From contig CH464491.1 of NCBI GenBank assembly GCA_000002445.1, forward strand, positions 928,001 through 992,000: a stretch of DNA of 64,000 nucleotides, in the 5' to 3' direction. Each line of letters starts with the position of its first letter. Position 1 is the first letter of the stretch. The notes under the pieces are model-generated. The model saw nothing but the letters and a program-made list of their open reading frames with translations, was not told the origin of the DNA and ran no database searches. This document shows positions 21,420-59,767 of the stretch, piece after piece. The translations under genes and the position numbers were made by a program. This DNA comes from Trypanosoma brucei (taxonomy: Eukaryota).

Positions 21420-21600
21420 TGTTGTGATCGCTGGCCCTCTTTCTTTTTCTTTTTTTTTTCCTTTTCTTTTTTTTTTTCTTCACCTTTCTTCATTTGTTTG
21501 TTTTGTTTGTTTTTGGTTCAATTCCTTCCTTCCTTCCTCCCCTCCCCTCCCCTCTCCTCTCTATTTCTCTCCTCTTTCTTTCTTTTTCTAAAACCCTCTG
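21420..21600 (+). promoter_or_regulatory. 180-nt homopyrimidine (C/T) block downstream of the UEV gene
   Basis: It is almost purine-free on the + strand (ctttctttttcttttttttttcc...cctcccctcccctcccctctcctctctatttctctcc). It is a candidate polyadenylation or trans-splicing control tract, but no ORF lies within 2.3 kb downstream. Confidence 0.5.
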
Positions 21601-22898: not shown

Positions 22899-22961
22899 TA
22901 TATATATATATATATATGAGTGAGTGAGTGAGTGGGGGGGGAGGGAGGGAGGAAGGAAGGG
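22899..22961. repeat. Compound microsatellite (TA)9-(GAGT)4-G-rich (GGGA/GGAA)n
   Basis: Directly visible as tatatatatatatatatat gagtgagtgagtgagt ggggggggagggagggaggaaggaaggg. Confidence 0.9.
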
Positions 22962-25354: not shown

Positions 25355-28300
25355 ATGTGCGGTGTGTCGGGGGTCGGTGGACATGACGTACCATTGCCTT
25401 CGCTCGTGACCTCCAGTGACAAGTGGCTTGTGTACGGCTGCGCTACCGACGCATTGGTTGTGTGTGCACTGAAGGATGAACTTCCCTCATCTTGTTCTTC
25501 TAACGCCGGTTCCACCGGAGGTGAGAGCGATTTTGTTCAAAATACATCTGTGGTATCGCTTCCCGCAGGTGAAGAGTTGTCTGTTGTTTGTATACATCCA
25601 GTAAAGGACCTTTTGTGCGTTGGGACTACGCTTAACGGCGTTTACCTGACGACGGCAGCGAACCCCAACTTTAGTGCCGGTGCAAAACTGTCCCTTCGAT
25701 TCAGCGGTATTGTCAGCCACTGTGCGTGTTTTGTTAATGGAGTAGAAGAGGGACATGACATATTGGTGATGTCGTGTTTGTTGGAGGAGGCACTAGTGGA
25801 ATGCCACAAACTGTTACTGTGGGACGTTTGTTCAAAAGCACTTCTTTGGCGGGGATGTACCGAAGCAATGGTCTCAATAACTGCTGTACCGGGAGTGGTT
25901 GGCTTTGCAAGCTGTTCGAGAAGGCACTTGCTAATGTGGTCTTTTCGTAACGGTGCCAGTAGTGCCTCTTCTTTAACTTCGACTGCCAACAGTGCTGTAG
26001 GGGCCGACGAAGACAGTGGTGGGACGATCACCGTTTTCAGTAAAACGTTCGCCGCTGTTGAGGAGCTGCATGATGTGGAGTATGTGTGCGTTGTCACTCC
26101 AGCCTCGTCGGCAGAGAAGTCGTTGACGGTTCTTACAACTAAGGGGTTCCTTGTCTCATTCAATCTCCATAGCGGTGAGCCACTCAAGTGGATGGACTGT
26201 AAAATTTCTTCAGTCACGTCAGCATACAGATGTGGAGGAGATATTGTGGTATGTGGCGGTCTTGTTCGTTTCTTCTCAGAGGACTGGGTGTTTCGTGGAA
26301 AGATCAGACCACCAGAGCACTCTCCTCATCCCGGGACACCCCATGCACCACATTCGACTGGTTTGACCTGCACAGGAGCTGCACCTTGTGGCGGTAACGC
26401 AATAGCTTTTTTCTTCACGGGAGGTGGTATCGTTAGATGCCGTATCGGGCGTTTGGGAGTTGAAGCAAAAATGTGTGACTCCGTAAGCACGTGCTCCAAG
26501 TTGACCTTTCATTGTGTGTACGAATATGTACCGATATCTCCGCATGATGCGCCTATTCAATTGTTGGCTCTGACGCCGGATGTGATATGCCTTCACTCGC
26601 GGCATCAGCTCCGATTGTATGGTACTCCTCTGTTGTTTAGTCGGGGCAACATGTCATTTGAGAGTACTTGCTGTGCGTATCATCGCGGTTTAGGCGTAAT
26701 TGCGATGTATGAATCTTCTGCCCACCAAATAGTTGCTGTAACACCGGGGTTGGAAAGGGTGTTATGTCGTTTGGGTTTGGAGGTGCCACTCACAGCCCTG
26801 ATCACCTTGGAAGATAACCAATTTGTAGGTTTGTCGGCCGCTAATACAATTATTTACCTTGAGGGACAGTGGGGGGAAGATATGCAGCACTTTTCCCTGC
26901 GGTTATTGCGAATACAACGTTTTGCGGAACTCAAGACGCCGTTCACGCATCTGGCATACTCAGCAGGTGTGTTGCATGTCGCCTCCTCCCGTGAGGTTGT
27001 TAACTTGCATACAGGGCACATTACTAGCTTCAACGATGATATCATTGCCCTAATTCCGGCCAGCGGCGGCGCATTGCTTGTAGTACACACTCACTCATGT
27101 ATTTTCTTGAGTCCTAGCGGGGTGACACCTGTTGGTTTCCCGTTCCTTGAGGCCGACTTGCGTGGTGCTGCGTCGTCCCTGGGCAGAAGGTACGTGGCGC
27201 TCTACAATGAAGGAAATGTGCATGTTGTTGAACTAAGCAGCGGTAAGCGCGTCAAGCATATCAGCGCCCAACGTGGTGCGAGCGGGGCCTCCCCAACTAC
27301 AATTAGATGTGTTGGATTCACAGCGGATGACAGCAGTATTGTGGTGTGTGATTCGAGAGGGGTTCTGGAGGTGCACGGCTTTGAGGGCACGGGGCTGATA
27401 TCACCCGGTATTTATGGTGATGCCACTTCGGCAGACGACACAAATACGAATCGCTTTTCTAGAGAAAGCAGTTGTTCCAGCAGTAGGCGTGCAAAGCAGC
27501 TCGATGGGCCCACGAGCACTGAGTTGCAGAACCGCTTCAAAGATTTACATGGTTTCTACGAGGCGTCCCGACGCGTGGCAACGGAACGAAAAGCTTACAA
27601 ACTGCCCGAGAGACATTCAAAGTTTGCAAGCAGCACTGGTACCAACTCATCATCAGGACGATCTACTCCAAGCCCACCAACGTCGGCCAACAGGAGTAGT
27701 GGGAAAAACGCGTTCCGTGTCCAAGACGGGGATGAGGGTTTGCTGCCAACGCCCAAAAAGTCGCCGTATCCAGCCCGGCGCTGGAAAGCAGCTGATGTGC
27801 CGGCAAGCTTACTTAATGTTGGTGCTGGTGGAAACGAAATTCTTGTTTCAGCTTCTTTAGTTGAAGTTTCGGCATTGACTTCCATAGATTCAAAACATAA
27901 CGATCTCAGTAGCGTGCTGGAAGGCGGAGCAGCCGCCTTATCGTGGGCAGTAAATGACATTCCACGCGACAGCGGAAAATGCAGGGTCCCGGACTCTCCC
28001 GCTTACGTTTTGCAGAGTCCTACACGGAAGGGAGAACCTTTGTTGAGCCCAATGAAAGTACCTGAGGACGACGTGGTAAACGTTGACTCGTTTGATCGCG
28101 TTGACCCGCGGCGGATCGAACGGCTACACTCACAGACTGCAGGGCACGATGACCCCACAGCGCTGCAGTGCCATCGTACAAATTCGTCTGACGGCATCGC
28201 GTCTCTGCGCGCAAGGTCGCTGGATATACGCGATGGGCTCAAAGAACTTGCTGATGCGTACGAGCGTCTCGGTGAAGAAGATGGGGATGATGTGGATGAG

Positions 28301-28525
28301 ACGACCATGGAAGAAATGTTCTCCACTGTAAGTCGACTCTATACAAGATTGCAGTCTCGTCAAAGCCGCCGCTCGAATAGCAGCTGTAGTTTCGCGAGTG
28401 ATCAGTCTTCGGCGTCGATCAACGCTATGCTCGCGAACCTACAGCTTCTGCAATGCCAAAATAGTCGTATAGAGGCCCAGAACCGCGAGATCCTGTCGAA
28501 ACTTAGCTCTGCGAACGGTCGATAA
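25355..28525 (+). CDS. Hypothetical protein (1056 aa), possible beta-propeller N-terminal region, Ser-rich disordered middle, C-terminal coiled coil
   Basis: The ORF is long, same-strand and sits behind a polypyrimidine tract. It has a coding-like, non-repetitive composition. No recognisable catalytic motif was found. The C-terminal 80 aa are heptad-like. Confidence 0.7.
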   Translation: MCGVSGVGGHDVPLPSLVTSSDKWLVYGCATDALVVCALKDELPSSCSSNAGSTGGESDFVQNTSVVSLPAGEELSVVCIHPVKDLLCVGTTLNGVYLTTAANPNFSAGAKLSLRFSGIVSHCACFVNGVEEGHDILVMSCLLEEALVECHKLLLWDVCSKALLWRGCTEAMVSITAVPGVVGFASCSRRHLLMWSFRNGASSASSLTSTANSAVGADEDSGGTITVFSKTFAAVEELHDVEYVCVVTPASSAEKSLTVLTTKGFLVSFNLHSGEPLKWMDCKISSVTSAYRCGGDIVVCGGLVRFFSEDWVFRGKIRPPEHSPHPGTPHAPHSTGLTCTGAAPCGGNAIAFFFTGGGIVRCRIGRLGVEAKMCDSVSTCSKLTFHCVYEYVPISPHDAPIQLLALTPDVICLHSRHQLRLYGTPLLFSRGNMSFESTCCAYHRGLGVIAMYESSAHQIVAVTPGLERVLCRLGLEVPLTALITLEDNQFVGLSAANTIIYLEGQWGEDMQHFSLRLLRIQRFAELKTPFTHLAYSAGVLHVASSREVVNLHTGHITSFNDDIIALIPASGGALLVVHTHSCIFLSPSGVTPVGFPFLEADLRGAASSLGRRYVALYNEGNVHVVELSSGKRVKHISAQRGASGASPTTIRCVGFTADDSSIVVCDSRGVLEVHGFEGTGLISPGIYGDATSADDTNTNRFSRESSCSSSRRAKQLDGPTSTELQNRFKDLHGFYEASRRVATERKAYKLPERHSKFASSTGTNSSSGRSTPSPPTSANRSSGKNAFRVQDGDEGLLPTPKKSPYPARRWKAADVPASLLNVGAGGNEILVSASLVEVSALTSIDSKHNDLSSVLEGGAAALSWAVNDIPRDSGKCRVPDSPAYVLQSPTRKGEPLLSPMKVPEDDVVNVDSFDRVDPRRIERLHSQTAGHDDPTALQCHRTNSSDGIASLRARSLDIRDGLKELADAYERLGEEDGDDVDETTMEEMFSTVSRLYTRLQSRQSRRSNSSCSFASDQSSASINAMLANLQLLQCQNSRIEAQNREILSKLSSANGR

Positions 28526-44028: not shown

Positions 44029-44985
44029 ATTGCATCCCTCGTGTTTGTTGTTTCGCTTGGTTTTGAATGTGATGTGCGTGTGTGCACTGTTGAAATCTCC
44101 CTTTTTTTATGTACGTCCACTTCCTCATTCTCATCTCTCCTCCTATTTGTAACGAGCTTCCTCGTTACTTTCTTTTCTCTTAACTCTTCGTTTTCTCGTC
44201 GGAACTTCGGCATATGTGACGGTGGAATTATCCACGTCGCGTTGGTCTTGAGGGGCCGAAGGAAGGGGGAGGGAGTGGTTCATTGTGTCGTCTGTTTGTG
44301 TGTGTGTGTGTGTGCGTGGAGGGGGTGGGGAAGGGTGGGTGATGGTCAATGGCGATATCAAGAGGAGAAAGCAACGCACTTTGCCGCTGATGTTGTCGTT
44401 ACGGTCACGCCAACCATTTGCAACTTCCCCCATCCCTCCCATGAATTTATCACTATACAGTGGCTCCTTGTTGGAGAAGAGGCTAAATAATGGTAGTCGG
44501 TGGGTGAGTGTGTGCGGACATGTGAAAATAGGTATGAGAGAAAAGGGAAAGAAGAGAGGTAACCGCAAAAGGGGAGAGGAGGAGGAGGAAAAACTCTAAG
44601 CAACGTAATAAACTGTGTAAGTGATGCGGTGGGGGTAACTACATACAACTGCTGACGGTTTGGTGCTACAGGTACATAAGTGTGTGTTCGTTGGGGGACA
44701 CTCTTTCGCGTGTGTTTTGTATTGTTATTTTCAGTGGCTACTTGGCTTCTGCCGCATGATATTTTATTTTTTTTCTTCGTTTATTCCGGTGGTTTTCTTT
44801 GTACTTACGCTCGGGACTGCCTCGCGTGCACCGCAGGCAAATCACCAAGCCTGTGTCTGTAGAGTACGGAACCGACGTCAGCTGCGAGAAAGCAGCAAAA
44901 TAAGCAAAAAGAGGGATATCCCAGTTGAAGAGGGGATTAGAAAAGAGTTTGATAGCATTCCTTCTAACTTCACCAGAGATTTACC

Positions 44986-47900
44986 ATGGATGGTCTCAGC
45001 ACACAATACTTGCAGATGGCGAACGGCCCGCAGAGCCAGATGCATGATCCGGTATCTGTGGTGAATTTCGTAGACCAAATGCAACTTGCTTTTGAGAGAA
45101 GCACGGCCCCGCGTAAGAACTTCCTCCTTGACAGCACAACGCCTCGTGGTGATGCTATCATTACTGAAGTTTCTGCAATGAAGCCAGGGAACGGCTGGGT
45201 CACACTGCAGGTAACCGAGGGAATTAGGCGTGGTGTGCACGAATGGGGTGTAACCATTGAAAACCAGGGCGAGACCACAGACGGAAGTGGGCTCATGCTT
45301 GGAATAGTTCCCAAAAGCTTCTCAAAGTATGATTCCTTCATTTCACAAGGTGGTGGCTGGTGTCTAAGCCGCGCCGGAAAGTTTTACGGCCATTGGAGGA
45401 GGCACGAGGCGAACGCAAGCGTTACTTTTGGTACAGGTGACCGTGTCATTTTTATTCTGGATTACGAAGCGGCACGCATGACGGTGCGGGTGGGCGATAA
45501 GTATGTTGTGGGTGAGATTAGCAACATTGCTCCCGAGGTGTTCCCGGCGGTATCCCTGCATTATCGGCACCAGTTTGTGCGGTTTGAGTACCGCAAGGTG
45601 CATGATCGGCAGTCAAAGAAACTGAATTGGATAGAGAGACTTGCATTCCCTCACGCAACGGTGTTCCTACCACTGACAAGGCAACAATTAGAAGATGTAC
45701 CACTAGGTTCATACGTTTTTAGTCCACTATTCGCCGAGGGGCAGGGATGTGCGCCGCCGCGGAAAAGGCAGGGAGAGCATGGGCCAGCAACTGGCGAATC
45801 TCTTGACACTGAGGAAAGGGGAGCGAAGTTGCATTGCGATTACGAGGCTCACAGCGCTGCAAAGGCACGGTTGACTGTTGTTCTTCGCGCCATACAAGCA
45901 GTGAGACGCTACTGTACGAACGGTGTTGTGGCGGCACACACTTTTCTTGACCGAAACGTAACGGCAGAAATGCTGCGAAGTCAACGACACGCCTTAGCAA
46001 CTCGCGGGTCCGATCGGCGCGGCGGAGGGGACGCCGCAGTGGACTGCGGGGCGTTAATACTTATCCACATGTTTTCGCACTCCAGCATGACAATCACTGG
46101 TGTTACTATGTTACCGGTGCTGCGTAGCTTGCAAGAGTACCTTCGTAGTGTTGACCTCTTTAGCCTCAGTGAAGCATCTGTTGGTTGCACTAACGCGGGG
46201 ACCATCGTTTCTCCAGACGTTGTGCGGATGGCAGCAGATAACGTAGCTGGGCTCATTGACCGCGCTCGTAGGAATGAGTGTGATAGCAGCAATGATACGG
46301 CTGTCAGTGGTATGGGTAGCACAGATGCTAGCATCAGTTTGATTCCCGGTTTGACGGAACTCCTTGTACTGGTGGCACTGCAGTGTGGTACGGTGTGTGA
46401 AGTACTCCGTGCCGTCAGGGTGCTGCTGCGCGCACCCACAAGTGATGTTTCACCCGAGATGCTCACTTGGTTGCGGTTGAATAAGGCAGCGCTCACACCG
46501 AAATGTTACCTACCTAAACTTCACGAAGCCTATGACGCTATTGAAGAGGATATGGAGCATGTTACGCCCTTCGCTCCTACCATAGAGGTTAAGGTTATTT
46601 CAGTAGGTTATCATCGTGGAGCAATATACGTTCATACAGCTGACACCCTCCGTAGGTGGGGTGTTTTTGTTGGGGCATACACACCAACATCCACGACAAC
46701 CGAACCTAGGAACTGCTGCCTCAACTGTACCAGCTCCAGTATCGCTTTTATGAAGGACGAAGGGGTCATATTCCACACTGATCGTATGGCGGGTGCCGGC
46801 ATTGCTGTGGTGGTCTATTCTTCATCACTTGAGATCCAGCAAACGGTGATGCTTGCCAGTGTGCCACAGTGGCCTACGACGTCCAATTATGTGCGCATGT
46901 GCTCTGGGCCCGGCCACCACATATTGCTTGTGTACGACGTGCCTCACTCGGACACATCGTCAGCATTACGAGGAACGGCAGCTCCGGTGCCATCGACAAC
47001 CGCGGGAACGTTGACGGACGACGCAAGCAAAGCTTCTGCTACTGGAATCGAGGTACAAGTACTCAATGGCAAAAAGTTTCCGGAGGTAAAGTGGCGTACG
47101 AAACTTCAATTTCCACCATTCGACAACACAACAAGATCGTGTGTGACGTTGCGCAAAGGAAGCGTCATTGACTTTGGCAACCCTGAGACGTACCTTAACA
47201 CCACAGGTGGTCACATAACTGTGGAAGTGTGGATAAAAATGCTTGATAAGAACGATGTTTCCGTGTTTTACCAGCATGGTGACCGCAGCACAAGTGGCGA
47301 AGTATTTCTCGAGACGGCACGGCTGGAGGGGGCGTGGCGGATTCGTGGTGGCTATCGTCACGACTATCGTGGAATGTGTGTCGTTTCGGCGCCATTTAAC
47401 CCGGCTTCCGAGTCCCGTTTCGTTCATGTGGCGTTGGTGTTCGACGGAAACTGGCGACTTCATTTTGATGGTGAAGAGGTGTCGCGTACCAAACAGTGCC
47501 TCCAGGTGGCACTTGAAAACCCCCGGCAGCGATGGACAGCCGGCAATGACTGCGTTTGCCAGTTGGCGGGGCTGCGGGTATGGAAGGGGGGGCGGACATT
47601 TCGCGAGATTGCCCGTGATTCCTCCCGTGTTCTTGGTGGAGATGAGCCTGGTCTGGTGTGCCAATACCTATTCAACGAGCACAACGGAAACGTCGTCTAC
47701 AACCATGTGAGGGGCGAAGCGGCTGCGGGACGTCACGCCATTGTCCGGGGGGCATTTTCTCGCACTGTGTGCAACGATCATCCACTTCTCGCTTCTGCAC
47801 ACAGCGAGCCGGCACTCGGGACCTCGACGGTGCGTGTCACAGCCCCAACGTACGATCTACCTAAACTAGAGCATGCTCATGTGTTCTATGACGGTGTACA

Positions 47901-50900
47901 TCTTGGTATATTAGAACAGAAGGAGCGAGCATTTCATGGTTTTGCTGAGATGAAATGTCTCCACCAGGCAGTGTTTTTTGACATTGAAACTGGTCGCGGA
48001 GTGTATGGGAGTTTCATGCTTCGACATCGCTACAAGCTAGGTCTCCTCGGGTGCGATGAAAATGGCCGTTACTGGGAGCTATTTCAGGCAGGGGGGCAAC
48101 CAAACGTTTCTTTGTTTGGTCAGCAGCAGCAGCAGGCGCAGTTACCTGCAACCGTTTCAGCAGGTACACTCTCCGTCTCCCCGAGCGCAGTGCTGGAAGA
48201 GGACCACATCGCGTGGCACGACAACTTGGAATTTTTATCCTTCACTAGCTCAGTTAAGTCCGAAACACCGGGTGATGCCCCGAAGGGATCCATTTATGGG
48301 GACATGGGTACCAGCTCACCAACCGACAATGACATCAATACCCAGCATATGAGCTTTGGTGCATTGGCGATTTGGTTGTTGAACCTCCTTTCTTCGTTCT
48401 CGGAATCAAACGACACTGCGTCCACCAATTCCCTGTTTAGTCCACTACTTGACGATGTGAGTGTTCGCTGTGTGCAGGAAATACGGCAGTTGCTGCACGA
48501 ACACTGTCGCCCAGTGAAGTCCATCAGCTCGAGGCGTTCCCTGAGTCTTAAGGACAGTACTTCCACCATTGCCATTGGCACTGCCATGCGCATCCTTCTG
48601 CGCCTTGTGAGACGGGTGCGTGATTTCAGAATACATCCGGACACGATTGGACTTTCTGAAGCTGCTTCTGTCGGTGATCTCAGAGGTGTTTTTCGTGAAC
48701 TTAATGCCATCCAGCGCAGGCGTAGTACCGATTGGTCTAAAGCTGGCGATTCCTTTTTGACTACGCCAAGTCAGGCAGCAACGATGGCGAAGGCGGCATT
48801 GTCAGTACCGCCAAAAGACATATTCAACAGCATTTCACCAACTTATATACCACATGTTGGATTGGGCTTACTTGGCATTCTTCTTGACATCATAAATGAG
48901 TCGGGCTTAAGTTTACCCACAGAGTTGGGTAGCATAGCTTGCATCATCGTAAACGAAGGTGTAACACTTTTCTTCCCCACTGCGGTGGTGCGTGCCAATC
49001 TGCTACGTGAAATACTCGGAAAGGAGGAAGAGAGCATGACTCGGTCACCGGCTCTGAGTGTGCTTCTTCATGCTATTGTAAGGAGTTTTACTGATGTAAC
49101 ATCTGCGGCGTCCCTTCTTCAGATCACAGAACCCGACAACTGCATTCCGAGGCGAAATGATGGCATCGAACCGAACCGAAGCAAAAATGACGATACCGCG
49201 GCAGCCTATGGAAAGCTCGCTGCAGTAAAGAGCACACTTTCAACGTTAGTTGTAGAATGTACACAGCAGGTAATGCGCCAGGCTCCAAACAATCTGCGTC
49301 AGTCCCAACTTTCCCTTCTGTCGACAATGGCTGAGGCAATCGGGGTACTGCAGATGCTGCTTTTTAGTCACTGTGATGAGTTTGGGACAGTGGATGTACA
49401 CGAAAAGATGAACAAAGGTATTGAAAATATGCATTCACTCCACGGTGTCGTTGGACTTGGTACGACGGCAAGAGATTATTACACGGAACTTTTTGATAAT
49501 GCGGGGCTAATTTTCGAAACATTTGCGCAACGACTTGAGGTGATGTCATTGGGAGAGGAAAAGGAGACATCCGGAAGAGTTTCTTTTGTTCTCGATGTGC
49601 TTGGTAACTCCTTCGTTGGAAGCCCACTTCACACAGCTATTACCGCCTTGCCCCTTATGTGCTCTCAGGAGGAATCTGGGTGGTTGCTTGGGAGACTCAA
49701 CCACTTGTCGCTACGGTATCGCGCACTTCTTTGCTCACTTCGCGCAAGCATGACAACGGGAACAACACTTGGGTCACACCGTCCACTACATGTCCTCGAC
49801 ACCGCCCTGTCGTTGGCATCTTCGTGGGTTGCATCCTTCATGTCATTAGGACAAATATCGGCACCAACAATACGGGAGGAAAGTGCTTCCCCGTCCCACT
49901 CAACTGTCTCGACACCGCCTCACGACAACGCGACTGATGCACCGTCTTGTGAATTATCCGCCACCCTGAAGGAAATCTGTGACCACCCTCTGCTTGCTGC
50001 TGGAATAAAAAAAGACGACGACAAAAATGATAAAAAAATGGAAGTTCTAATGAAGCTTCAACAGCGGCAGGCCGAGTGGCAGTCCATTGCTCGACGGGAT
50101 GTGGTGCTTGCGTCCAAGACGCCGGTGGAGATTGAAGAAGTGATATCTATGGCTGCAATCGCAGTTGTTCATCTTAGCAGTGCGAGAATAGAGGTTCTCG
50201 CCATGAACGAATGTATCGAATTGCTTGCAAAGACATTGGTACGCCTGAAAGGACTAAGGAGTGGATTACTGGATAAACGTTCCAAGAGTCCCGGTGACTT
50301 TTTAGCTGTCCAACAAAACGCGAAGGAGTGCTGTCATTTCCTGCTGCGTGTGGCAAGAGTATCGGACTCTACAGTGATTCAAATGCCATCCCTCTATCTC
50401 GCTCGGACGTACGCGGATCGAGCGCAGGGGGATCCTAAACGGCCTGGCAATGTGAACGTCGACAATTGGAAACGGGCAGTCCTCATTATGCGGATGAAGC
50501 GGCTCTACCATCGTGCCCTTGTCTATGGCTGGTCATTGATTCAGATTCCCGCCGCAGTTGCACTTGTGGAACGTATCATTCTCTCCCCCGAAATAAAAGC
50601 ATCAGACATGCGGGAAGCCTTCGAAGAGAGGGAAAGGGGGGCGCTCAGGCGCTTAAGTGGTCTTCAGCATATGTACCAGCTATTTCAGAATAATGCCCGC
50701 CTTGGTTGTAAGGTTGCATCACTTCTTTTCAATGGTCGCGTGGGTGGAGGCCGACATTTTGAGCTTGGCATATCCGCGTCGGGTGATTCCACGCGTTGTA
50801 GCTACCGACAAACGATGTATGACATTATTCGGCGACTTTGTGAGATCACACGGCCGATAACAAATCACAAAGGCTTCCCCGAGGCAACCACTGATGGCTC

Positions 50901-53900
50901 TGCATCACCTGCGTCGTCTCCACGAGGAGTTGTCGAACCGTGTCGATCAGCTACGCTAAGCGAGGTACTCAACAGGCAGTGGCTTCCCAGTGATTTTTGT
51001 TTCTTCAGGGAGGTCCGCGTCGTGGAAGTAATGTTCCTTTCGTTCTGTAGCATATTCCAACCAAATGCGTCTGAAACGTTGCGGCATGAACGGGCACTGG
51101 AGCTGTCGCACCGGGGGGCCGTTAAGGGGAATAGAACCCACCCGGTGGCTGGCATCGGTGGGAGCAACAACGGCACTACCTTTCCAAGCTCTACCACTGC
51201 TATGAGTGGTGGTCGTACGAGCGGGAGCGGTAGACCTCTTGCTGTTGTCGCGCCCGGGGGTGTGGGAGATGAAGGAAATGAACAGACGTTGCAGCGCACA
51301 CCGAGCGAGTGGGCGTTGCTGGAATCTCTCAATGCCCTCAAGTCATTGGGACTACAGTGTGCTGCTGCGCTGGGTGATGAGAATGCGGCACCGAACGAGG
51401 TGCGTGGCTGTGTTAATTTTCTCGACCTCGTTTTTGAGGTGCTCGATGAGGAGCTACGTAAGTGCGCTTACTATGCATCACAGCCGTACTACCATAGTCA
51501 AGATCGCGTACTGGAGCACATCGGATTGCTGTGTACTCTAATCAGCACGTTTGCCCGAGCGCTTCCGGCTGGCTTTATTTGCACTGAGGTTGTCTGTCCA
51601 AAAGCGGCGTTTCTGGCCTTCCGCCTTTGGTTGGTGGCTGATGTAATGGTATTAGCATCCGCAATGAATGTGGGAGCCTGTCCACTGGCGGAGGTATGCG
51701 TTCACACCAGTATTTTGCTACTTCGTCACTGCTCGCCCGCTGCTGTCAACCCATTGTTTACCAAAGAGAGTATTATGAGTGTTGTGCGGAAGTTACTACC
51801 CGCCGTAGCCGCGGATTGTGCAGCTGTAGGCTACTTTTTTTCCTTTGCAATACGTTGTGTCTCTGGGGACAGTAGTACGGGTGGCAGTGGTGCAAGCGGG
51901 AGTGCGCTCGGTAATTTCGGTGACATTGGGATAAGCTGTGTGGCTTCGCTACATGCACTTCTCTGCAGTCACCCATGGGATGAGACATTCTCCGCCATGC
52001 GTGGGCCTTTCTTGGCTGACCTCGCAGACTCGGCAAATGGCGGAGAGGCCATGCGTCCGAACGGCGTTCGTCTGCTCATGTGGATTTATCTCATCGGGGG
52101 GCCTCCGTCTGCTTCGTTAGGTCCTGGCAGGAAGGTTTTCATGTGTGTTGACGAAACGCTAGCAGCAACCGAGGAAGCTTACATCGTCGACTGCAACGCG
52201 AAGGCGGGCACAGCAACCGTCTTGCCAATACAAGTGGGCGCATTCACCGAGGAACATGAGGTTCCCCTCGACAACCTCATCAATGCGTCGCAGGATGAGG
52301 TTCTACTTCCCCGCTCTGAGGTGTTATTCCAGTTCCTACTTCCAGCCTTGGAACAGTGCTTCTCACCGCGACTTCGGCCACATTCTTCGCCCCTCCCGTG
52401 GGCTGTGATCGCCAGCCTGCTGCGCATCACACTCGCCGTCTTGAAAAAAGATCCTTCTGCAAGTTATGTCCTGCTTGAGCGGGGGATCATCGCGCAAGTG
52501 GACGATTTCGCGTTCCGGACACCTGCCAAAACCCCGTTACCGTTGCGGTATCTTTACGAGATGTGGCCGTTGCTCCTTCCACAGACAATGAATTGTCAAC
52601 AGCGGGCATTGTTTGATGCTGTCACCTCTTCCTCGAAGGATAATGATGCAAAGGCTCTATCATCCGGCTATGTATATCCGGTACGTACACCATGCCACGA
52701 TATCCAAGGTCCGCCTTCTGACCCTTCTGCGCACACAGCAAACTCGCTGTTTAGTGTAGCAGCTGCGGCTAGATACTCGGTACTTCCCCGTTTGGATGTT
52801 GAATGCAGCAACGCTGACGTGGATGATTACAACGGCAGTGGGAACATGGGGGGTAGTCCGGCCAATATTAGTGGGAGCAGCGTCGGTTGCACTGGTTCAC
52901 CTCCGCTGTTCTCCCGCCTACAGCAAGCACACTCCTCGCTCTGTCTTACACCCTCTGTTCTGTGCTTCAGTGGAGCCAGGGGCGATCCAGCCGGAACACT
53001 CATCATGAAGGGTGTCAGTAAGGATAGCTGCATCCCACCTTGGGCGGACGGTATAACCATTGAGGCGAGTGTCCTTCTGTATGACCGCCTTTTCCCCGAG
53101 CTGGGCGAAGCGTTCGTAATCCCAGCTTCCTGGGGCCGCCCACCAATTTCTTTCTCACTGTTTTCCTTGTACGAGAAGAAAGGAGACGGTCGAAGGTCGT
53201 TCCTGCGAGTGGTGCTGGACGAGGCGCGGATGGATTGTATCATAGAAACGGCAGCAGTATCGGCAGTGGTAATATCTACGAAACTTCTTCAGGAGGATTG
53301 GGACCATTGGATTCATTTAGCAGTGGTCATCGATAGCAAAAGCATAACGTTGTACAAAGATGGTGCTGGGGTAGCGGCGGCCCTTCCCAAGCACTTGGGT
53401 GTATACCTGGAAAATCTGTTTCGTGAAGGAAGCGTAGACCGGCTTGTTATAGGAAATATTAGTTCTGATGGAAAGAGAACTGGTCGGGGGGTCGTGTCAG
53501 TGGACGAAACCGACAGTGATGAAGCCAGTAGCAGTGGTGGTGGCAGGAGCTATGGCAAATCATCCAACGGGGTTGTTGTGGCTCTCGACAGTGTGCGGCT
53601 GTGGGGATGTGCGCGTTCTATGAAGATGCAGCGATCGGCCGCCGATTTCGTTGCGCGGGAACAGACGCTCCCGGTTTACGGTGTAAACGATGGTTCCAAC
53701 GTTACCTTTCGCTTTTCAGAGGCCACCGGAAACGAGACTTACGCTGAGAAGTGCGAGGGAGTGGGGGTGCTTAGCGGTAGTGTGCGCTGGGCCCCCTTCC
53801 CCGTTTTCTCCAGCAACGTTAACCTAGACAAGGTTCAGCGCACTGACGTGGCCCCACCTACTGCCCTACCTCTTTTCATTCCACGGCGTGAGTTTGAAAG

Positions 53901-56900
53901 CTTCTTTGCCACGCTTGACCACTCACCAGCCCTCAGGCTGGGTGGGGAGTACATGCAGAGCATTTGTGCTCATCTCAGTCGGCAGTGTGTTGTTGCCGCC
54001 ATTCAGCAAGCGATGTCGCCACAGTACCGTGTCGTTCACTTTGAACATTGTCGCACCAAAGGCTGCGGTGATGTTCCGGCTTCTGCCATTGTCGACCCGC
54101 GGAACATCATCGCAAGTACCGAGCTGATCAGCCATCTGATCAATTTGCTGCGATATAGTGACACTGGTTACCTTGAAGAAAAGGTGGTATTGGCAGTTTC
54201 CCAGTTTGTGAAGGTGTATTTTAGCTCTATGACCTCAGAAAAGCGTCTCTTGAAGGGATTCCGAGAGGCCGCCGTTGCGATCACTAAGGCTCTGCACGAT
54301 GAAACAGAACCTTTCTGTGTGGAATTGCCGACTGTTTCGTACGTGGCAACAGATGCTAATTTGGTGCCCATTGCTACTATTAACGGACCAGGAGGGGTAG
54401 TATCCTTCGATGCGAACAGTCGAGGTATCGAGCAGATGACCCTCTTGCGCGACCGTAAGCAGCGGGTACTCCTTGCAAAGTATCCCGACGCACAAAGCGG
54501 TTGGCCGGAGTTAGAGGTGCCTAGCGACAGCCTTTGGTTCTATGCGAAACCAAGCATCAGTACACGGTCTGTTGCACCATCCTTCACAGTTTCAGCACGG
54601 TCGCTTAAACCGCAGGTTGCGTGCGCAATTTTTGCTGCACTTCGTGAAGTTCTCTCTTCGGATGCTCGATTCCATTGCGGTCTTGGTTCTTTCTTGAACG
54701 CACCATTCATATCACTCTTGACGGTGCGCACAGGGACGACGAAGTGCGCTGCCGTCCCCTCGTGCCGAATCTTTACCTCTGTGTTGGAGTTGTGGCGGGA
54801 ATTCCCCCAATTCTCTCAACAAGACCAATGTCCATTGAAGATAACCCTAGCTAACCTCAACGCGCCGCTCATGTCGGTTCTACAGCGTGGCCATGCATCA
54901 GTTGCATCTTCGCCCATTGGTCGCCACAACGTGAGGGTTCAAAGTGTATTTGAGCTTTTGGTGGCCGCAATTCGGACCGAAGCAGCATGGGATATTTTGA
55001 CTCATAACCAGCGGACGCAAATCCGGTGGAGGCGCCTTTGCTCGCTGTGGGAACGTTCCATTGGCTTGTGTGCGCCAGCCATAACCATCGGAGTTAATTC
55101 CTCCGCCCTGCCTGCTTCCGCCACTACAGCTTTGGGCAATTCCAATCGAAACCACAAAGTTAGCAACGTTAATGCTGGTGGGTGCGGTTTGTCGTCGTCG
55201 GAGCATAAGCATGGTTATGTACATCTGGTTTTGTTGCCTTTTTCTGGTTCCACGCTGCAGCATCAACCCAAGGCATCGATATTCCAGCGCGGCAGTGGCG
55301 TTTGGAATGCCTTCTGCGACCGGGGTTTCCTCTCGGCACGTAGTAACGTGGGCTTCAAACATGGTCGGTTTTACTTCGAGGTCCGCATTCCTGCTAACGG
55401 CGATCCCATATCAGTGGGTGCTGTCACCGAGCGGGCGCAGCAGAACTCGTTTCTCTCACCGCGGGGGCTTGGCCACGACGGCGATTCTTGGGGTTTTGAA
55501 AGTGCGCAAATGTGTCGTTTCTATCATGGCTTTCGCCATGAATTTACCATGCGTACAAAGTGGAAGGGGCTTGATGTCATAGGCATCATGCTAGACCTTG
55601 AGACGGACACACTCGCCTGCCTGCACGAGGAACGTCAAGTTAGTGTGTTCGACAATTTCAGAGCATCCTTAGGTGCAGGGGTGCCTCTATCGTTTTTCCC
55701 AGCCGTTTCATTTGGAGCGGGAGGCGTAGATGTAAACTTCGGTGCGGCGCCCTTCGCCTACCGCGTTCCAGCTGGATTCGTACCAGTTGACCCATCAAAT
55801 TACATGGCTTCACCAACGTCAACGCCGTGGATGCTTATTTCGGCGATTGACGTAAGCGAGTGCCTTGCGAGGAGTGGGAAGAAGGGCACCGGGACGGACG
55901 CTAGTGATGGTGCCGTCGTTGCCACTAGTTCCTCAAAGGAAACCCGGCAGCTCCCACCCTTTCTAGCAAGAGCTAATGCTTCTGCTGCAACTTATTATGA
56001 AGGTCGAAGTGGACCACTGTGTGTGAACCTTCTTCCTTGTGGTCCTAAAAACAAAATGACATCTGTACAGGGAAGTGAGGTACGTGCTGAAGAGGACCCA
56101 CGGTTCTTTCGGGGTAGCGTTTGTGTCCGCTCTGGACGCTGGTACTATGAGGTTGGCCTCCGTGGCGACGCATTAATAAGTGTCGGTTGGGCAACGTCTA
56201 CCGCTGCAACTGATTGGTCGCGATCAAGGGGGTTGGGCGACGATGCTGAATCATGGGTGCTCGAAGGAAACCGAGCGACGGCAAGGCACAACAAGCACAC
56301 GCGAAGTGTTGGCGGCCAGTTGTGGAAACATGGCGATATCGTTGGCTGCTTGTTGGACTGCGAAGCCGGTACGATTGCGTACACACTGAATGGCGTCCCA
56401 CTACAGGAAGCGCAAAACACCGATGGTGAAGGTATTCTCTTCCGCTCAGTGAATCATGCAAACGGCCTGATGCCGGTCATTGGTGTTGACCCTAAAAATA
56501 CCGCGGTCGTCTGCTTCTGCGAGGAAGAACTATCGCACCTTCCGAAAAGGTGTCGGGCACTTGGCACAACGAGCCCCCTAAGAAAGGCACTGGAAAATCA
56601 CTTTTGTGGAGTAGATACAAGTGGGGTGGCGGAAAGGGGCGTCAGTGGTGTTTGTAGTACCCAATTCTCTCCCTCGCTGGCGCGACGTCTGCTACTGACC
56701 CTTTCGTCTTTGACGGAACTGAACTTTCACAATGGCGCAGCTTATTGCTTGGAAGATACCCTCACGAAGACTGACAAAGCCGTACTATGTGATAAGTTTC
56801 TGGGTCACAAAAACGCCATGCAGCTCCTTGTCACGTTACAAAACCTCACGAGCTTGGCCGAAGCGGTGATCCCGTATGCAGGCGTCCCGAGCATTCCTAT

Positions 56901-58368
56901 GGAATGCGATGTGCTTCTGTCTGGTCCCATCCGTAGGGCGTTGGATCACCTTCATGACTACATGCTTCCTGCTGTTGGCTTGCGTTTCCTCCATGGCTTT
57001 TTCTCCCAGACTAGCAGCTCTGGTGAAAATCTCAAACTTACGCTCAATAGGCGGAAGGCGTTGTCGCTGGTGAAGGACACAACTGCCACGCTTCCTGAGC
57101 GCCTCAGCGGAAGCATTTTCGGTCAGGTTTACCAACTGTTACACGACAAGAATGTTTCCCTTTTCTGTACCAGCCGGAAGCTGTGGTCCGTTAATTTTGT
57201 GGGGGAAGGCGCTGATGACATTGGCGGGCCGTACCGTGAAAGCATCACACAGCTGTGTTCCGAGTTGATGGGCCCAAGCCTCCCGCTCTTTATTCCTAGT
57301 CCTAACCAAGCCAGCGAAATTGGGGAGTCTCGTGAGGTGTTTGTCGTGAGGCCTGAAATGGAGGCCCCTGTGCGGCTAAATATGTACCACTTCTTCGGTC
57401 GTTTTCTCGGCGGTTGTCTCCGTAGCTCAGAGCCGGTTCCGATTTACCTCTCCAGCCGCGTGTGGAAGACAATACTCGGTGCGCCAGTGGGCGTAAGTGA
57501 CTTGGGGAGGGTAGATGTGGCAACAGTGCAGTCGTATCGATACATTCAACAACTTAGCTCATTGGGTGGCGGTGAAGCGGGCGCTACAGATGGAGAGGTT
57601 GAAGAACTGTGTCCCGGAGGATTTACTGTTGTGGACGATATTGGAGTGGAGCGAGAGCTCTTTCCAGGAGGAAGCGCCATATCCGTCGGCCGTCACAATG
57701 TTGATCTTTTTCTCGAGCTTGCCATGGACTACAGACTGCACGTAATGGGTGAAGCGCAGGTTAAGGCAATCGCAGATGGATTTCATCAGGTGGTCCCCGT
57801 GTCTGCAGTATCGTTACTGAAGTGGTATGAACTGGAGCGCATGGTTTGCGGTCTGCCAGACTATGATGCGGATGAGCTGCTTGATGCAGCACGATATGAA
57901 GATCTAAATCCGGACAGCGTTATTGTGCAGTACCTTCGCCAAGTGCTGCGTCAGTTCTCTCGCCATGAGCGTGCATTGTTCATGCGGTTTGTGAGTGGGA
58001 GGGAACGACTTCCTTCCGGAGTGCGGCTTAAGGTAATGCTTGACACCTCTGCACAGCAGACGAGAGATGAGCGTGGTAACAACGCCTCAGGTGCCGACAA
58101 CGCGGAGAACTCCAACATGGGTGGCGATACGTTTGATGACAGCAGACTCCCACACGCCTCCACATGTTTCTACTGGTTATCGCTGCCGCGGTACAGTTCA
58201 GTGGAGGTGATGCGGGAGAGGTTGCTCTTTGCGATTCAACACTGCCTTGACATTGATGCTGACTTCATGGTGCGTGACACCGGTAGTATGGAGGATGAGG
58301 GGGAACCCATGTTGGCTGTAATTGTGGAGGACGACGACGAGTTTGAGGATTTTTCACATCTTCGGTAG
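44986..58368 (+). CDS. Giant HECT-domain E3 ubiquitin ligase (4460 aa) with multiple SPRY/B30.2 and ConA-like lectin-fold domains
   Basis: This is a single 13.4-kb ORF. The C-terminal HECT domain spans about 57150-58365. Its N-lobe start is FVGEGADDIGGPYRE, and its active-site context ASTCFYWLSLPRYSS has the Cys codon at 58165-58167. SPRY domains lie at about 45150-45590, about 55290-55770 (GFKHGRFYFEV) and about 56100-56520 (SGRWYYEVGL). ConA-like and pentraxin-like modules lie at about 47150-47500 and about 52990-53400. Confidence 0.9.
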   Translation: MDGLSTQYLQMANGPQSQMHDPVSVVNFVDQMQLAFERSTAPRKNFLLDSTTPRGDAIITEVSAMKPGNGWVTLQVTEGIRRGVHEWGVTIENQGETTDGSGLMLGIVPKSFSKYDSFISQGGGWCLSRAGKFYGHWRRHEANASVTFGTGDRVIFILDYEAARMTVRVGDKYVVGEISNIAPEVFPAVSLHYRHQFVRFEYRKVHDRQSKKLNWIERLAFPHATVFLPLTRQQLEDVPLGSYVFSPLFAEGQGCAPPRKRQGEHGPATGESLDTEERGAKLHCDYEAHSAAKARLTVVLRAIQAVRRYCTNGVVAAHTFLDRNVTAEMLRSQRHALATRGSDRRGGGDAAVDCGALILIHMFSHSSMTITGVTMLPVLRSLQEYLRSVDLFSLSEASVGCTNAGTIVSPDVVRMAADNVAGLIDRARRNECDSSNDTAVSGMGSTDASISLIPGLTELLVLVALQCGTVCEVLRAVRVLLRAPTSDVSPEMLTWLRLNKAALTPKCYLPKLHEAYDAIEEDMEHVTPFAPTIEVKVISVGYHRGAIYVHTADTLRRWGVFVGAYTPTSTTTEPRNCCLNCTSSSIAFMKDEGVIFHTDRMAGAGIAVVVYSSSLEIQQTVMLASVPQWPTTSNYVRMCSGPGHHILLVYDVPHSDTSSALRGTAAPVPSTTAGTLTDDASKASATGIEVQVLNGKKFPEVKWRTKLQFPPFDNTTRSCVTLRKGSVIDFGNPETYLNTTGGHITVEVWIKMLDKNDVSVFYQHGDRSTSGEVFLETARLEGAWRIRGGYRHDYRGMCVVSAPFNPASESRFVHVALVFDGNWRLHFDGEEVSRTKQCLQVALENPRQRWTAGNDCVCQLAGLRVWKGGRTFREIARDSSRVLGGDEPGLVCQYLFNEHNGNVVYNHVRGEAAAGRHAIVRGAFSRTVCNDHPLLASAHSEPALGTSTVRVTAPTYDLPKLEHAHVFYDGVHLGILEQKERAFHGFAEMKCLHQAVFFDIETGRGVYGSFMLRHRYKLGLLGCDENGRYWELFQAGGQPNVSLFGQQQQQAQLPATVSAGTLSVSPSAVLEEDHIAWHDNLEFLSFTSSVKSETPGDAPKGSIYGDMGTSSPTDNDINTQHMSFGALAIWLLNLLSSFSESNDTASTNSLFSPLLDDVSVRCVQEIRQLLHEHCRPVKSISSRRSLSLKDSTSTIAIGTAMRILLRLVRRVRDFRIHPDTIGLSEAASVGDLRGVFRELNAIQRRRSTDWSKAGDSFLTTPSQAATMAKAALSVPPKDIFNSISPTYIPHVGLGLLGILLDIINESGLSLPTELGSIACIIVNEGVTLFFPTAVVRANLLREILGKEEESMTRSPALSVLLHAIVRSFTDVTSAASLLQITEPDNCIPRRNDGIEPNRSKNDDTAAAYGKLAAVKSTLSTLVVECTQQVMRQAPNNLRQSQLSLLSTMAEAIGVLQMLLFSHCDEFGTVDVHEKMNKGIENMHSLHGVVGLGTTARDYYTELFDNAGLIFETFAQRLEVMSLGEEKETSGRVSFVLDVLGNSFVGSPLHTAITALPLMCSQEESGWLLGRLNHLSLRYRALLCSLRASMTTGTTLGSHRPLHVLDTALSLASSWVASFMSLGQISAPTIREESASPSHSTVSTPPHDNATDAPSCELSATLKEICDHPLLAAGIKKDDDKNDKKMEVLMKLQQRQAEWQSIARRDVVLASKTPVEIEEVISMAAIAVVHLSSARIEVLAMNECIELLAKTLVRLKGLRSGLLDKRSKSPGDFLAVQQNAKECCHFLLRVARVSDSTVIQMPSLYLARTYADRAQGDPKRPGNVNVDNWKRAVLIMRMKRLYHRALVYGWSLIQIPAAVALVERIILSPEIKASDMREAFEERERGALRRLSGLQHMYQLFQNNARLGCKVASLLFNGRVGGGRHFELGISASGDSTRCSYRQTMYDIIRRLCEITRPITNHKGFPEATTDGSASPASSPRGVVEPCRSATLSEVLNRQWLPSDFCFFREVRVVEVMFLSFCSIFQPNASETLRHERALELSHRGAVKGNRTHPVAGIGGSNNGTTFPSSTTAMSGGRTSGSGRPLAVVAPGGVGDEGNEQTLQRTPSEWALLESLNALKSLGLQCAAALGDENAAPNEVRGCVNFLDLVFEVLDEELRKCAYYASQPYYHSQDRVLEHIGLLCTLISTFARALPAGFICTEVVCPKAAFLAFRLWLVADVMVLASAMNVGACPLAEVCVHTSILLLRHCSPAAVNPLFTKESIMSVVRKLLPAVAADCAAVGYFFSFAIRCVSGDSSTGGSGASGSALGNFGDIGISCVASLHALLCSHPWDETFSAMRGPFLADLADSANGGEAMRPNGVRLLMWIYLIGGPPSASLGPGRKVFMCVDETLAATEEAYIVDCNAKAGTATVLPIQVGAFTEEHEVPLDNLINASQDEVLLPRSEVLFQFLLPALEQCFSPRLRPHSSPLPWAVIASLLRITLAVLKKDPSASYVLLERGIIAQVDDFAFRTPAKTPLPLRYLYEMWPLLLPQTMNCQQRALFDAVTSSSKDNDAKALSSGYVYPVRTPCHDIQGPPSDPSAHTANSLFSVAAAARYSVLPRLDVECSNADVDDYNGSGNMGGSPANISGSSVGCTGSPPLFSRLQQAHSSLCLTPSVLCFSGARGDPAGTLIMKGVSKDSCIPPWADGITIEASVLLYDRLFPELGEAFVIPASWGRPPISFSLFSLYEKKGDGRRSFLRVVLDEARMDCIIETAAVSAVVISTKLLQEDWDHWIHLAVVIDSKSITLYKDGAGVAAALPKHLGVYLENLFREGSVDRLVIGNISSDGKRTGRGVVSVDETDSDEASSSGGGRSYGKSSNGVVVALDSVRLWGCARSMKMQRSAADFVAREQTLPVYGVNDGSNVTFRFSEATGNETYAEKCEGVGVLSGSVRWAPFPVFSSNVNLDKVQRTDVAPPTALPLFIPRREFESFFATLDHSPALRLGGEYMQSICAHLSRQCVVAAIQQAMSPQYRVVHFEHCRTKGCGDVPASAIVDPRNIIASTELISHLINLLRYSDTGYLEEKVVLAVSQFVKVYFSSMTSEKRLLKGFREAAVAITKALHDETEPFCVELPTVSYVATDANLVPIATINGPGGVVSFDANSRGIEQMTLLRDRKQRVLLAKYPDAQSGWPELEVPSDSLWFYAKPSISTRSVAPSFTVSARSLKPQVACAIFAALREVLSSDARFHCGLGSFLNAPFISLLTVRTGTTKCAAVPSCRIFTSVLELWREFPQFSQQDQCPLKITLANLNAPLMSVLQRGHASVASSPIGRHNVRVQSVFELLVAAIRTEAAWDILTHNQRTQIRWRRLCSLWERSIGLCAPAITIGVNSSALPASATTALGNSNRNHKVSNVNAGGCGLSSSEHKHGYVHLVLLPFSGSTLQHQPKASIFQRGSGVWNAFCDRGFLSARSNVGFKHGRFYFEVRIPANGDPISVGAVTERAQQNSFLSPRGLGHDGDSWGFESAQMCRFYHGFRHEFTMRTKWKGLDVIGIMLDLETDTLACLHEERQVSVFDNFRASLGAGVPLSFFPAVSFGAGGVDVNFGAAPFAYRVPAGFVPVDPSNYMASPTSTPWMLISAIDVSECLARSGKKGTGTDASDGAVVATSSSKETRQLPPFLARANASAATYYEGRSGPLCVNLLPCGPKNKMTSVQGSEVRAEEDPRFFRGSVCVRSGRWYYEVGLRGDALISVGWATSTAATDWSRSRGLGDDAESWVLEGNRATARHNKHTRSVGGQLWKHGDIVGCLLDCEAGTIAYTLNGVPLQEAQNTDGEGILFRSVNHANGLMPVIGVDPKNTAVVCFCEEELSHLPKRCRALGTTSPLRKALENHFCGVDTSGVAERGVSGVCSTQFSPSLARRLLLTLSSLTELNFHNGAAYCLEDTLTKTDKAVLCDKFLGHKNAMQLLVTLQNLTSLAEAVIPYAGVPSIPMECDVLLSGPIRRALDHLHDYMLPAVGLRFLHGFFSQTSSSGENLKLTLNRRKALSLVKDTTATLPERLSGSIFGQVYQLLHDKNVSLFCTSRKLWSVNFVGEGADDIGGPYRESITQLCSELMGPSLPLFIPSPNQASEIGESREVFVVRPEMEAPVRLNMYHFFGRFLGGCLRSSEPVPIYLSSRVWKTILGAPVGVSDLGRVDVATVQSYRYIQQLSSLGGGEAGATDGEVEELCPGGFTVVDDIGVERELFPGGSAISVGRHNVDLFLELAMDYRLHVMGEAQVKAIADGFHQVVPVSAVSLLKWYELERMVCGLPDYDADELLDAARYEDLNPDSVIVQYLRQVLRQFSRHERALFMRFVSGRERLPSGVRLKVMLDTSAQQTRDERGNNASGADNAENSNMGGDTFDDSRLPHASTCFYWLSLPRYSSVEVMRERLLFAIQHCLDIDADFMVRDTGSMEDEGEPMLAVIVEDDDEFEDFSHLR

Positions 58369-58825: not shown

Positions 58826-59767
58826 GTGATGGAGGGAAGAGGGGGAGAAGACCCCTATATGCCTCCCCTAAGAAGGCGCCCGGGAACGCGACGGGACTAC
58901 CAGCCGCTCTACGCGTCGGACGCATCGCGTGGTCCGCGGTCCAGGCCGAACACGGCAAGATGTCATAGTCAACGTCCGGCTCCCCCGTCTGTACGCTGGC
59001 GCTCTCCGGACCACCTTAATACCAGCTACAGAGAAACTGACACATCGTCAATAATGCGTGCCACACCGAGAACTGGTCGGACACACGTTGCGGAGGAGCG
59101 GACGTCTAGGCACCAACAAAGGCGGTGCCAATCAGCAACACCTCCCGTGACGAGATCGGTGCTCTCCTGGGATCTGCAGGTACTTGACGGCGTTGAGTTA
59201 GGTTTCTCGGACCCAGGGTCATTGAGACTATTGGAGCTGCAGGTGCCTTGTTCCACAAGCGCAAATTTATTCGGCACCCACGAGCGGAGTAAGACGTTCA
59301 TTCCTGGCGATCCAGTTGGGTTGAAGTTGCGTCGCGACGCCATGAGCATCCACCCTTCGCGCCCTCGGGACCTTTGTTTCCTATCACCGGCTGCTGCGAA
59401 ACGAAACAACATACCGCTTTCCCTCGGGAACATCGGCGATGGAACGATCGCCACGATACCGTACTACCGTGTGAGTCGTATATCACGTTGCAGGTTCGCC
59501 TCCACTGACCGGCGAATCGTAGTACGTTTGACAGGTACCACTGGCCTTGTCCTTACCCTTGCTTTCACTGATAAAGCACTCTACACCACTGCCATGAAAG
59601 TTATCACTGGCTATTGCAGCAATTGTGACCGGAGGCCCGACGGGGTCAGATGTTCCTCTCCTGCTCGAAATATGTCACACCCGGAGGGTGAAGGAAGGTA
59701 CGTTTGTTTCGCTGAGCCGGAGGTGCGGACATTGCGTTCAAGCCGCGCCAACGGCTATACATATTAG
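58826..59767 (+). CDS. Hypothetical protein (313 aa), doubtful
   Basis: This is the longest + ORF between the HECT gene and the final gene. The N-terminal third is Arg/Pro/Ser-rich and low-complexity; the C-terminal two-thirds are more balanced. No recognisable domain was found, and there is only a weak poly-Y tract upstream. Confidence 0.4.
   Translation: MMEGRGGEDPYMPPLRRRPGTRRDYQPLYASDASRGPRSRPNTARCHSQRPAPPSVRWRSPDHLNTSYRETDTSSIMRATPRTGRTHVAEERTSRHQQRRCQSATPPVTRSVLSWDLQVLDGVELGFSDPGSLRLLELQVPCSTSANLFGTHERSKTFIPGDPVGLKLRRDAMSIHPSRPRDLCFLSPAAAKRNNIPLSLGNIGDGTIATIPYYRVSRISRCRFASTDRRIVVRLTGTTGLVLTLAFTDKALYTTAMKVITGYCSNCDRRPDGVRCSSPARNMSHPEGEGRYVCFAEPEVRTLRSSRANGYTY

Follow-up and report, generated by a model that had tools for sequence, protein, structure and literature searches.

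The window analysed here, 64,000 nucleotides (nt) of Trypanosoma brucei DNA (GenBank assembly GCA_000002445.1, contig CH464491.1, positions 928,001 to 992,000), carries the gene for a giant HECT-domain protein. Positions 44986-58368 of the plus strand form one open reading frame (ORF) of 13.4 kb, which the ORF listing and its translation give as 4460 codons free of internal stops. The predicted product has 4460 amino acids (aa) and a mass of 486.5 kDa. Extension towards the 5' side is closed off by an in-frame stop 21 nt ahead of the ATG. The longest ORF in the remaining five frames across the same interval has at most 233 codons, and, given the window's base composition, 4460 stop-free codons would arise by chance with a probability of about 10^-102.

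Every residue of the protein agrees with the T. brucei brucei TREU927 protein XP_828421.1 / EAN79309.1 (UniProt Q386H2), encoded on a 5.26-Mb chromosome. Its T. b. gambiense counterpart is 99% identical, and a length of 4460-4461 aa recurs in independent T. b. brucei, T. b. gambiense and further assemblies. In the S1 Table of Burge et al. 2020 (PMC7647121), Leishmania mexicana HECT4 (LmxM.13.1470, 592.1 kDa) is paired with Tb927.11.3390, and the same authors give Tb927.11.3310 as the T. brucei orthologue of UEV1. The UQ_con gene that corresponds to the latter is located eight genes 5' of the HECT gene in the window; as gene identifiers advance in steps of ten, the HECT gene is number 3390. From gene order and the published pairing, the ORF is most likely Tb927.11.3390, the orthologue of Leishmania HECT4. 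The alignment agrees, since the match takes in the full length of the 5610-aa protein from L. mexicana chromosome 13, and an L. donovani copy carries the name HECT4.

Pfam profiles were run against the whole protein and then against overlapping 800-aa segments spanning all of it. The HECT profile (PF00632) matched near the C-terminus with an E-value of 7e-57 and 194-198 bits against a cutoff of 23.9, covering profile positions 2-300 of 306. SPRY (PF00622) gave three separate matches, each above its cutoff of 26.3 bits, and Laminin_G_3, a concanavalin A (ConA)-like family (PF13385), was retrieved twice. No further Pfam family, including RCC1, WD40, DOC, ARM and HEAT, was found at E <= 5 over the whole protein. 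The domains are, in order along the gene:

45172-45603, plus strand: SPRY1, aa 63-206 (Pfam SPRY at aa 85-198, 31.2 bits)
47137-47775, plus strand: ConA-like/Laminin_G_3 module 1 (LamG1), aa 718-930 (Pfam at aa 739-867, 30.5 bits), predicted to lie between propeller blades
52954-53796, plus strand: ConA-like/Laminin_G_3 module 2, aa 2657-2937 (Pfam core at aa 2744-2797), with a disordered loop at aa 2828-2859
55366-55743, plus strand: SPRY2, aa 3461-3586 (48.3 bits), with a GRFYFEV core
56137-56520, plus strand: SPRY3, aa 3718-3845 (about 75 bits), with a GRWYYEV core
57250-58245, plus strand: HECT domain, aa 4089-4420, from Pfam

The GRFYFEV and GRWYYEV motifs start at aa 3460 and 3717, respectively. 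SPRY and Laminin_G_3 domains both adopt ConA-like sandwich folds, so the protein contains five sandwich modules of this kind. The closest PDB sequences to SPRY2 are SPRYSEC-15 and Ash2L, and the closest to SPRY3 is the SPRY2 domain of the ryanodine receptor (E 5e-20). SPRY1 alone has no sequence relative among PDB entries. A preliminary description of this stretch, made from the letters alone, had claimed a single-exon 13.4-kb ORF of 4460 aa, an unambiguous C-terminal HECT domain with its active cysteine at 58165-58167, at least three B30.2/SPRY domains with the two cores given above and two ConA-like segments, and had proposed HMMER comparisons with PF00632 and PF00622 and an orthologue lookup as checks. 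Each of these claims stood. The ORF is intact and intron-less, both profiles match above cutoff, the cysteine codon is exactly where it was placed, the two Laminin_G_3 matches are joined by fold predictions, and the lookup returned collinear full-length orthologues, with Leishmania HECT4 as the counterpart.

Collinear orthologues of 4400-5900 aa were found in T. vivax, T. grayi, T. cruzi, T. rangeli, Leishmania, Leptomonas and Phytomonas, as well as in several further assemblies; in total, collinear single ORFs are present in more than 15 other species. A matching layout is also seen in the euglenid Entosiphon sulcatum, in Diplonema papillatum (a truncated gene model) and in three environmental proteins. 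In the common layout, an N-terminal SPRY domain occupies residues ~45-240, a LamG domain residues ~720-905, and a SPRY-SPRY-HECT arrangement the end. L. mexicana HECT4 keeps this order, the same catalytic motif and the same FEDFSHLR tail, but differs in length, its surplus consisting mostly of low-complexity insertions. One environmental orthologue (P0024) has 3948 aa with Laminin_G_3, SPRY and HECT domains in one uninterrupted ORF at positions 1001-12847 of its excerpt (L001; ENA ERZ25333236, ctg690, 1.49 Mb). Genes were called 40 nt upstream of it, on the opposite strand, and 12 nt downstream.

An exhaustive HMMER search with aa 1-1100 against 1.84 billion representatives retrieved 21 clusters at E <= 1e-30. 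The results that match SPRY1 are all orthologues or short proteins and fragments, while the rest align with the LamG region only and are very large proteins with many matched stretches. From this search, the family looks small and confined to Euglenozoa. Three short proteins (P0177, 420 aa; P0202, 503 aa; P0225, 359 aa) align through their C-terminal part with SPRY1 at 33-42% identity (E 8e-32 to 1.5e-11). These could be pieces of orthologues, or else small proteins bearing this SPRY subtype. When the N-terminal 1100 aa and the HECT domain were each used in word-indexed searches, only short or fragmentary proteins came back.

Conservation was expressed as percentage identity to the T. brucei residue across 17 kinetoplastid sequences. 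It extends through the protein from its N-terminal residues up to and including the final ten, which are 79% identical. The best conserved block is SPRY1 (aa 51-200, 72-79%), which exceeds the HECT domain, parts of which reach 61-71%; LamG1 is at 57-68%, and most of aa 900-3450 at 15-40%. SPRY1 keeps 55-58% identity even in the proteins of the euglenid and the diplonemid.

Structure prediction of the N-terminal region added the following segments to the Pfam map:

45613-46026, plus strand: low-confidence, poorly conserved linker, aa 210-347, predicted local distance difference test (pLDDT) score below 50
46033-46548, plus strand: predicted helical bundle, aa 350-521, pLDDT about 70
46564-47109, plus strand: blades 1-3 of a predicted five-bladed beta-propeller, aa 527-708
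47875-48168, plus strand: last blades of the predicted beta-propeller, aa 964-1061

Foldseek searches with this model agree with the SPRY and LamG assignments. The best structural match of SPRY1 is the SPRY domain of HERC1; the two share only 16% sequence identity. The simplest reading of the model is that LamG1 appears as an insert between the blades of the five-bladed propeller. With LamG1 excised, the propeller matched no Pfam family in six orthologues. The predicted fold resembles glutaminyl cyclases. However, given the missing Pfam support and its place among the less conserved parts of the protein, we attach no enzymatic meaning to this likeness, and cyclase activity was not taken up as a candidate function.

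A second structure model, covering aa 2150-3349, had a mean pLDDT of 74.1 and a predicted template modelling score of 0.75. The segments between the LamG and SPRY-SPRY regions are:

48343-51435, plus strand: middle region, aa 1120-2150, no Pfam match, conservation 15-50%
51436-52098, plus strand: predicted helical repeats, aa 2151-2371
52132-52284, plus strand: predicted small five-strand beta domain, aa 2383-2433, no Pfam match
52315-52620, plus strand: predicted helical segment, aa 2444-2545, followed by a disordered linker to aa 2654
53884-54297, plus strand: predicted helical segment, aa 2967-3104
54304-54600, plus strand: conserved, predicted eight-strand beta domain, aa 3107-3205, motif NGGxGxxSFD...KDRxQKxxLAKYPDxQGGWP
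54607-55029, plus strand: predicted helical segment, aa 3208-3348

The part from aa 1120 to 2150 is presumed to be a mostly helical scaffold; a Chou-Fasman profile of the alignment gives only a crude hint of this. From aa 2150 to 3349 the model is mixed alpha/beta, its helices being broken up by three beta domains. The small five-strand domain is enlarged in Leishmania by low-complexity inserts. A profile of the eight-strand domain, built from 12 orthologues over aa 3095-3215, found no match in PDB sequences or Pfam. An armadillo- or HEAT-like fold had been suggested for aa 2000-3300, with structure prediction as the check. The prediction, run for aa 2150-3349, bore out the helical stretches and placed a small beta domain, a ConA-like sandwich and a beta domain of about 100 aa between them. 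The ARM/HEAT signature did not appear: no Pfam match was obtained, and no ARM or HEAT protein was among the best 50 Foldseek matches of this model, a list dominated by the beta-sandwich. That sandwich (aa 2657-2937) retrieved clostridial neurotoxin Hc domains and PAPP-A at E ~1e-4. As LamG1 also matches neurotoxin domains and PAPP-A, a second ConA-like module is supported despite its marginal Pfam score of 29.4 bits on its own segment against a cutoff of 27.6.

These folds raise the question of whether the two ConA-like modules act as lectins that direct the ligase to glycosylated substrates. Their closest structural matches include carbohydrate binders (4dqa, CBM40 lectin domains of sialidases and the binding domains of clostridial toxins), and Laminin-G3 has been described as binding complex sugars by Grau-Bové et al. 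(PMC3673628). However, the protein-binding LamG and pentraxin folds of PAPP-A, neurexin and PTX3 match equally well, and LamG folds are generic binding platforms. We therefore regard glycan-directed substrate choice as unlikely.

The catalytic cysteine, Cys4394, is encoded by a TGT codon at 58165-58167 (plus strand) within LPHASTCFYWLSLPRY, which aligns with the catalytic loop of HECTD3. The motif reads LPHASTCF in T. brucei, and LPxASTCF, including the cysteine, is kept in every orthologue. Two additional elements flank this loop:

58036-58146, plus strand: low-complexity C-lobe insertion, aa 4351-4387, directly before the catalytic loop
58267-58365, plus strand: C-terminal extension past the HECT fold, aa 4428-4460 (33 aa), with an acidic end motif

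The C-lobe insertion has 37 aa in T. brucei and 164 aa in Leishmania HECT4, and ranges from 26 to 181 aa among the orthologues. The tail ends in [DE][DE]xFED[FY][ST]HL[LR], which is EDDDEFEDFSHLR in T. brucei and NDDDEFEDYSHLL in Entosiphon. All orthologues have 65-68 residues after the catalytic cysteine (66 in T. brucei), against 32-54 in the other HECT proteins compared (33 in HUWE1). The insertion and the acidic tail are specific to this family.

In principle, a 37-aa low-complexity insertion before the catalytic loop and a 33-aa tail after the fold could disturb catalysis, leaving a catalytically dead scaffold of the pseudo-HECT kind proposed for Leishmania HECT13 and HECT14. The near full-length HECT match, the cysteine and motif invariant in the orthologues and the high identity of the HECT blocks all speak against this. 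Furthermore, the catalytic cysteine has been reported as conserved in HECT1-12, HECT4 included (PMC7647121). Loss of catalysis is accordingly very improbable.

Among PDB sequences, the HECT domain is closest to HECTD3 (9r85, E 9e-43), followed by HUWE1, HACE1 and Tom1. In large databases, its nearest named relatives are HERC2 proteins, at 33-35% identity (E ~1e-52). This proximity to HERC2 and HECTD3 fits class I in the classification of Grau-Bové et al. 2013 (PMC3673628), which comprises HERC1, HERC2, KIAA0614, HECTD3, HECTEx1, HECTAm1 and HECTHe1. Two of these families, HECTEx1 of Excavata and HECTHe1 of Heterokonta, carry Laminin-G3 and SPRY, and Laminin-G3 is exclusive to them (PMC3673628). 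The combination of Laminin-G3, SPRY and HECT was thus already described in 2013. The T. brucei protein, from an excavate, shares this combination with both families and has its HECT domain nearest to class I HERC2 and HECTD3; by architecture and taxon it would belong to HECTEx1. Giant metazoan ligases had been put forward as carriers of SPRY, ConA-like and HECT modules together. This is right for SPRY with HECT, as in HERC1, but Laminin-G3 alongside both is a feature of the excavate and heterokont families (PMC3673628).

The same relatives might suggest that the gene is the trypanosome orthologue of a large metazoan HERC, either HERC1 or HERC2, as HERC2 proteins are nearest by HECT sequence and the HERC1 SPRY domain is the best structural match of SPRY1. 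HERC2 too has a long acidic C-terminal extension, but its motif is different. HERC1, with its two RCC1-like domains and WD40 repeats, lacks Laminin_G_3. Neither RCC1-like (PF00415) nor WD40, DOC/APC10, MIB-HERC2, Cyt-b5 or ZZ domains were found at E <= 5 in any segment of the T. brucei protein; the absence of RLD, DOC/APC10, MIB-HERC2, Cyt-b5 and ZZ domains from it is a difference in the comparison with HERC2 and HECTD3. Alignment to HERC2 is limited to the HECT and SPRY domains, and within class I the excavate family is set apart from HERC1 and HERC2 (PMC3673628). Above all because no RCC1-like domains were found, orthology to HERC1 or HERC2 fails, and we give it very little credence. HUWE1 and Tom1 offer a working analogy of another kind, as giant HECT proteins in which a helical scaffold carries several substrate-binding modules. 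However, they belong to class VI of Grau-Bové et al., and their DUF908, DUF913, UBA and WWE domains are all absent from the T. brucei protein. The idea that the ORF is an assembly or annotation artefact, covering several genes or a decaying pseudogene, has nothing positive in its favour and is highly improbable in view of the repeated ORF length in independent assemblies, the collinear single ORFs and end-to-end conservation in other species, and the negligible odds of a chance ORF.

Taken together, the gene very probably encodes a single-polypeptide 487-kDa class I HECT ubiquitin ligase, Tb927.11.3390, orthologous to Leishmania HECT4. The ORF, its domains, the cysteine motif, the database match and the orthology are demonstrated; as the best-supported account of the mechanism, we infer the standard HECT cycle with its ubiquitin thioester chemistry. 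A ubiquitin-charged E2 would dock on the HECT N-lobe, ubiquitin would pass to Cys4394 as a thioester, and from there it would be transferred to lysines of the substrate. If HERC1, HUWE1 and further giant ligases are a guide, substrates may be held by recognition modules arranged along a largely helical scaffold. The candidate modules are the N-terminal SPRY, the propeller-plus-LamG unit, the second LamG, the eight-strand beta domain and the SPRY-SPRY pair beside the catalytic domain. Against this reading, the match of Laminin_G_3 module 2 spans only profile positions 51-103, a third of the profile, and the part of substrate receptor is assigned to the SPRY, LamG and propeller modules by analogy.

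In HECT domains, ubiquitin transfer involves the C-terminal residues, so the conserved extension is plausible as a regulatory element. The C-lobe insertion may have a regulatory role too. One could go further and imagine that the insertion and the tail flanking the catalytic loop form a built-in regulatory device, in which the tail docks as a pseudo-substrate on one of the protein's own SPRY domains and gates transfer. Ash2L-type SPRY domains do bind acidic D/E-box peptides. Separately, SPRY1 might read one partner common to all Euglenozoa. We consider these ideas speculative, with the odds well against them.

Functional data come only from Leishmania HECT4. Burge et al. 2020 (PMC7647121) succeeded in deleting every HECT gene, HECT4 among them, from L. 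mexicana promastigotes. Cells lacking HECT4 showed reduced fitness over two intervals, from 24 to 120 h of axenic amastigote differentiation and from the metacyclic stage to 12 h in macrophages; these effects were mild, and the mutant fell outside those with strong defects (PMC7647121). The view that substrates and role of the kinetoplastid protein are uncharacterised thus applies to its substrates, but the Leishmania orthologue has been deleted and fitness-profiled. In the searchable literature, we found no substrate and no T. brucei phenotype for this ligase, and no paper with Tb927.11.3390 in its main text; the identifier was also not found in the TrypTag supplement text, which was possibly incomplete.

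For T. brucei, a role has been described for one giant HECT ligase only: TbE3HECT1, a 470-kDa protein through which mistargeted mitochondrial precursors are removed (Dewar et al. 2022, PMC9163028). The ORF in the window was considered as TbE3HECT1 and this was ruled out: TbE3HECT1 is Tb927.8.1590, a paralogue and the orthologue of Leishmania HECT3. As it is a different gene, its role is not transferable to the Tb927.11.3390 protein.

Every gene in the window lies on the plus strand, as expected of a kinetoplastid polycistronic unit. From 5' to 3', the order is squalene epoxidase, a kinesin, a 1501-aa ORF, a Tcp10_C protein, a 138-aa UQ_con protein, a Gtr1/RagA GTPase, a 1056-aa protein, an RRM protein, a P4-ATPase, an AAA ATPase, a PIN protein, RanBP1 and then the HECT gene. 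Between the last two, pyrimidine tracts and AG dinucleotides give the usual appearance of a kinetoplastid trans-splice acceptor region:

44700-44800, plus strand: candidate trans-splicing signal, a polypyrimidine-rich tract followed by AG dinucleotides about 200 nt before the ATG, from reading of the sequence only

The intergenic region 5' of the HECT gene also contains a (TG)n run at 44296-44312. The UQ_con gene (20990-21406, plus strand; 138 aa, Pfam E 1.9e-15) is by position the UEV1 orthologue, Tb927.11.3310, and is located about 24 kb 5' of the HECT gene in the common strand-run. UEV1 and HECT4 share one chromosome in both species (LmxM.13.1580 and LmxM.13.1470 in L. mexicana). Within a kinetoplastid polycistron, such co-location is no sign of shared function. 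Burge et al. 2020 (PMC7647121) found that Leishmania cannot differentiate without UEV1, which is an E2 variant.

Around this small gene, positions 18000-24000 have a GC content of 0.36-0.39, compared with ~0.50 elsewhere, and contain few long ORFs; the stretch may be long untranslated or intergenic sequence. Two ORFs, one of 1056 aa (25355-28525, plus strand) and one of 313 aa (58826-59767, plus strand, listed with a GTG start), had no Pfam match at E <= 0.001 and presumably encode kinetoplastid-specific proteins. For the 1501-aa ORF (7895-12400, plus strand), the one match, to Apolipoprotein, stayed below threshold at 33 bits (cutoff 90) and suggests a long helical or coiled-coil product. Antisense to it, a 307-aa ORF with a TTG start (10801-11724, minus strand) is most likely due to chance.

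As a discovery, the locus carries little weight. Databases and papers already contain the gene, its catalytic class, its combination of domains and the Leishmania orthologue. What emerges is an ordinary, annotated gene from a family described before, with a gap in what is known about it and nothing surprising in its sequence. Its practical value is a refined domain map that locates the recognition modules. Giant HECT ligases are hard to study, the 470-kDa paralogue having been called refractory to analysis (Dewar et al., PMC9163028), and domain boundaries that permit the expression of fragments are useful for that reason. The map places the strongest constraint on the N-terminal SPRY and LamG1, and the conserved C-terminal tail and the eight-strand beta domain are worth mutating. 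If SPRY1 did recognise a single conserved partner, this would account for its extreme conservation.

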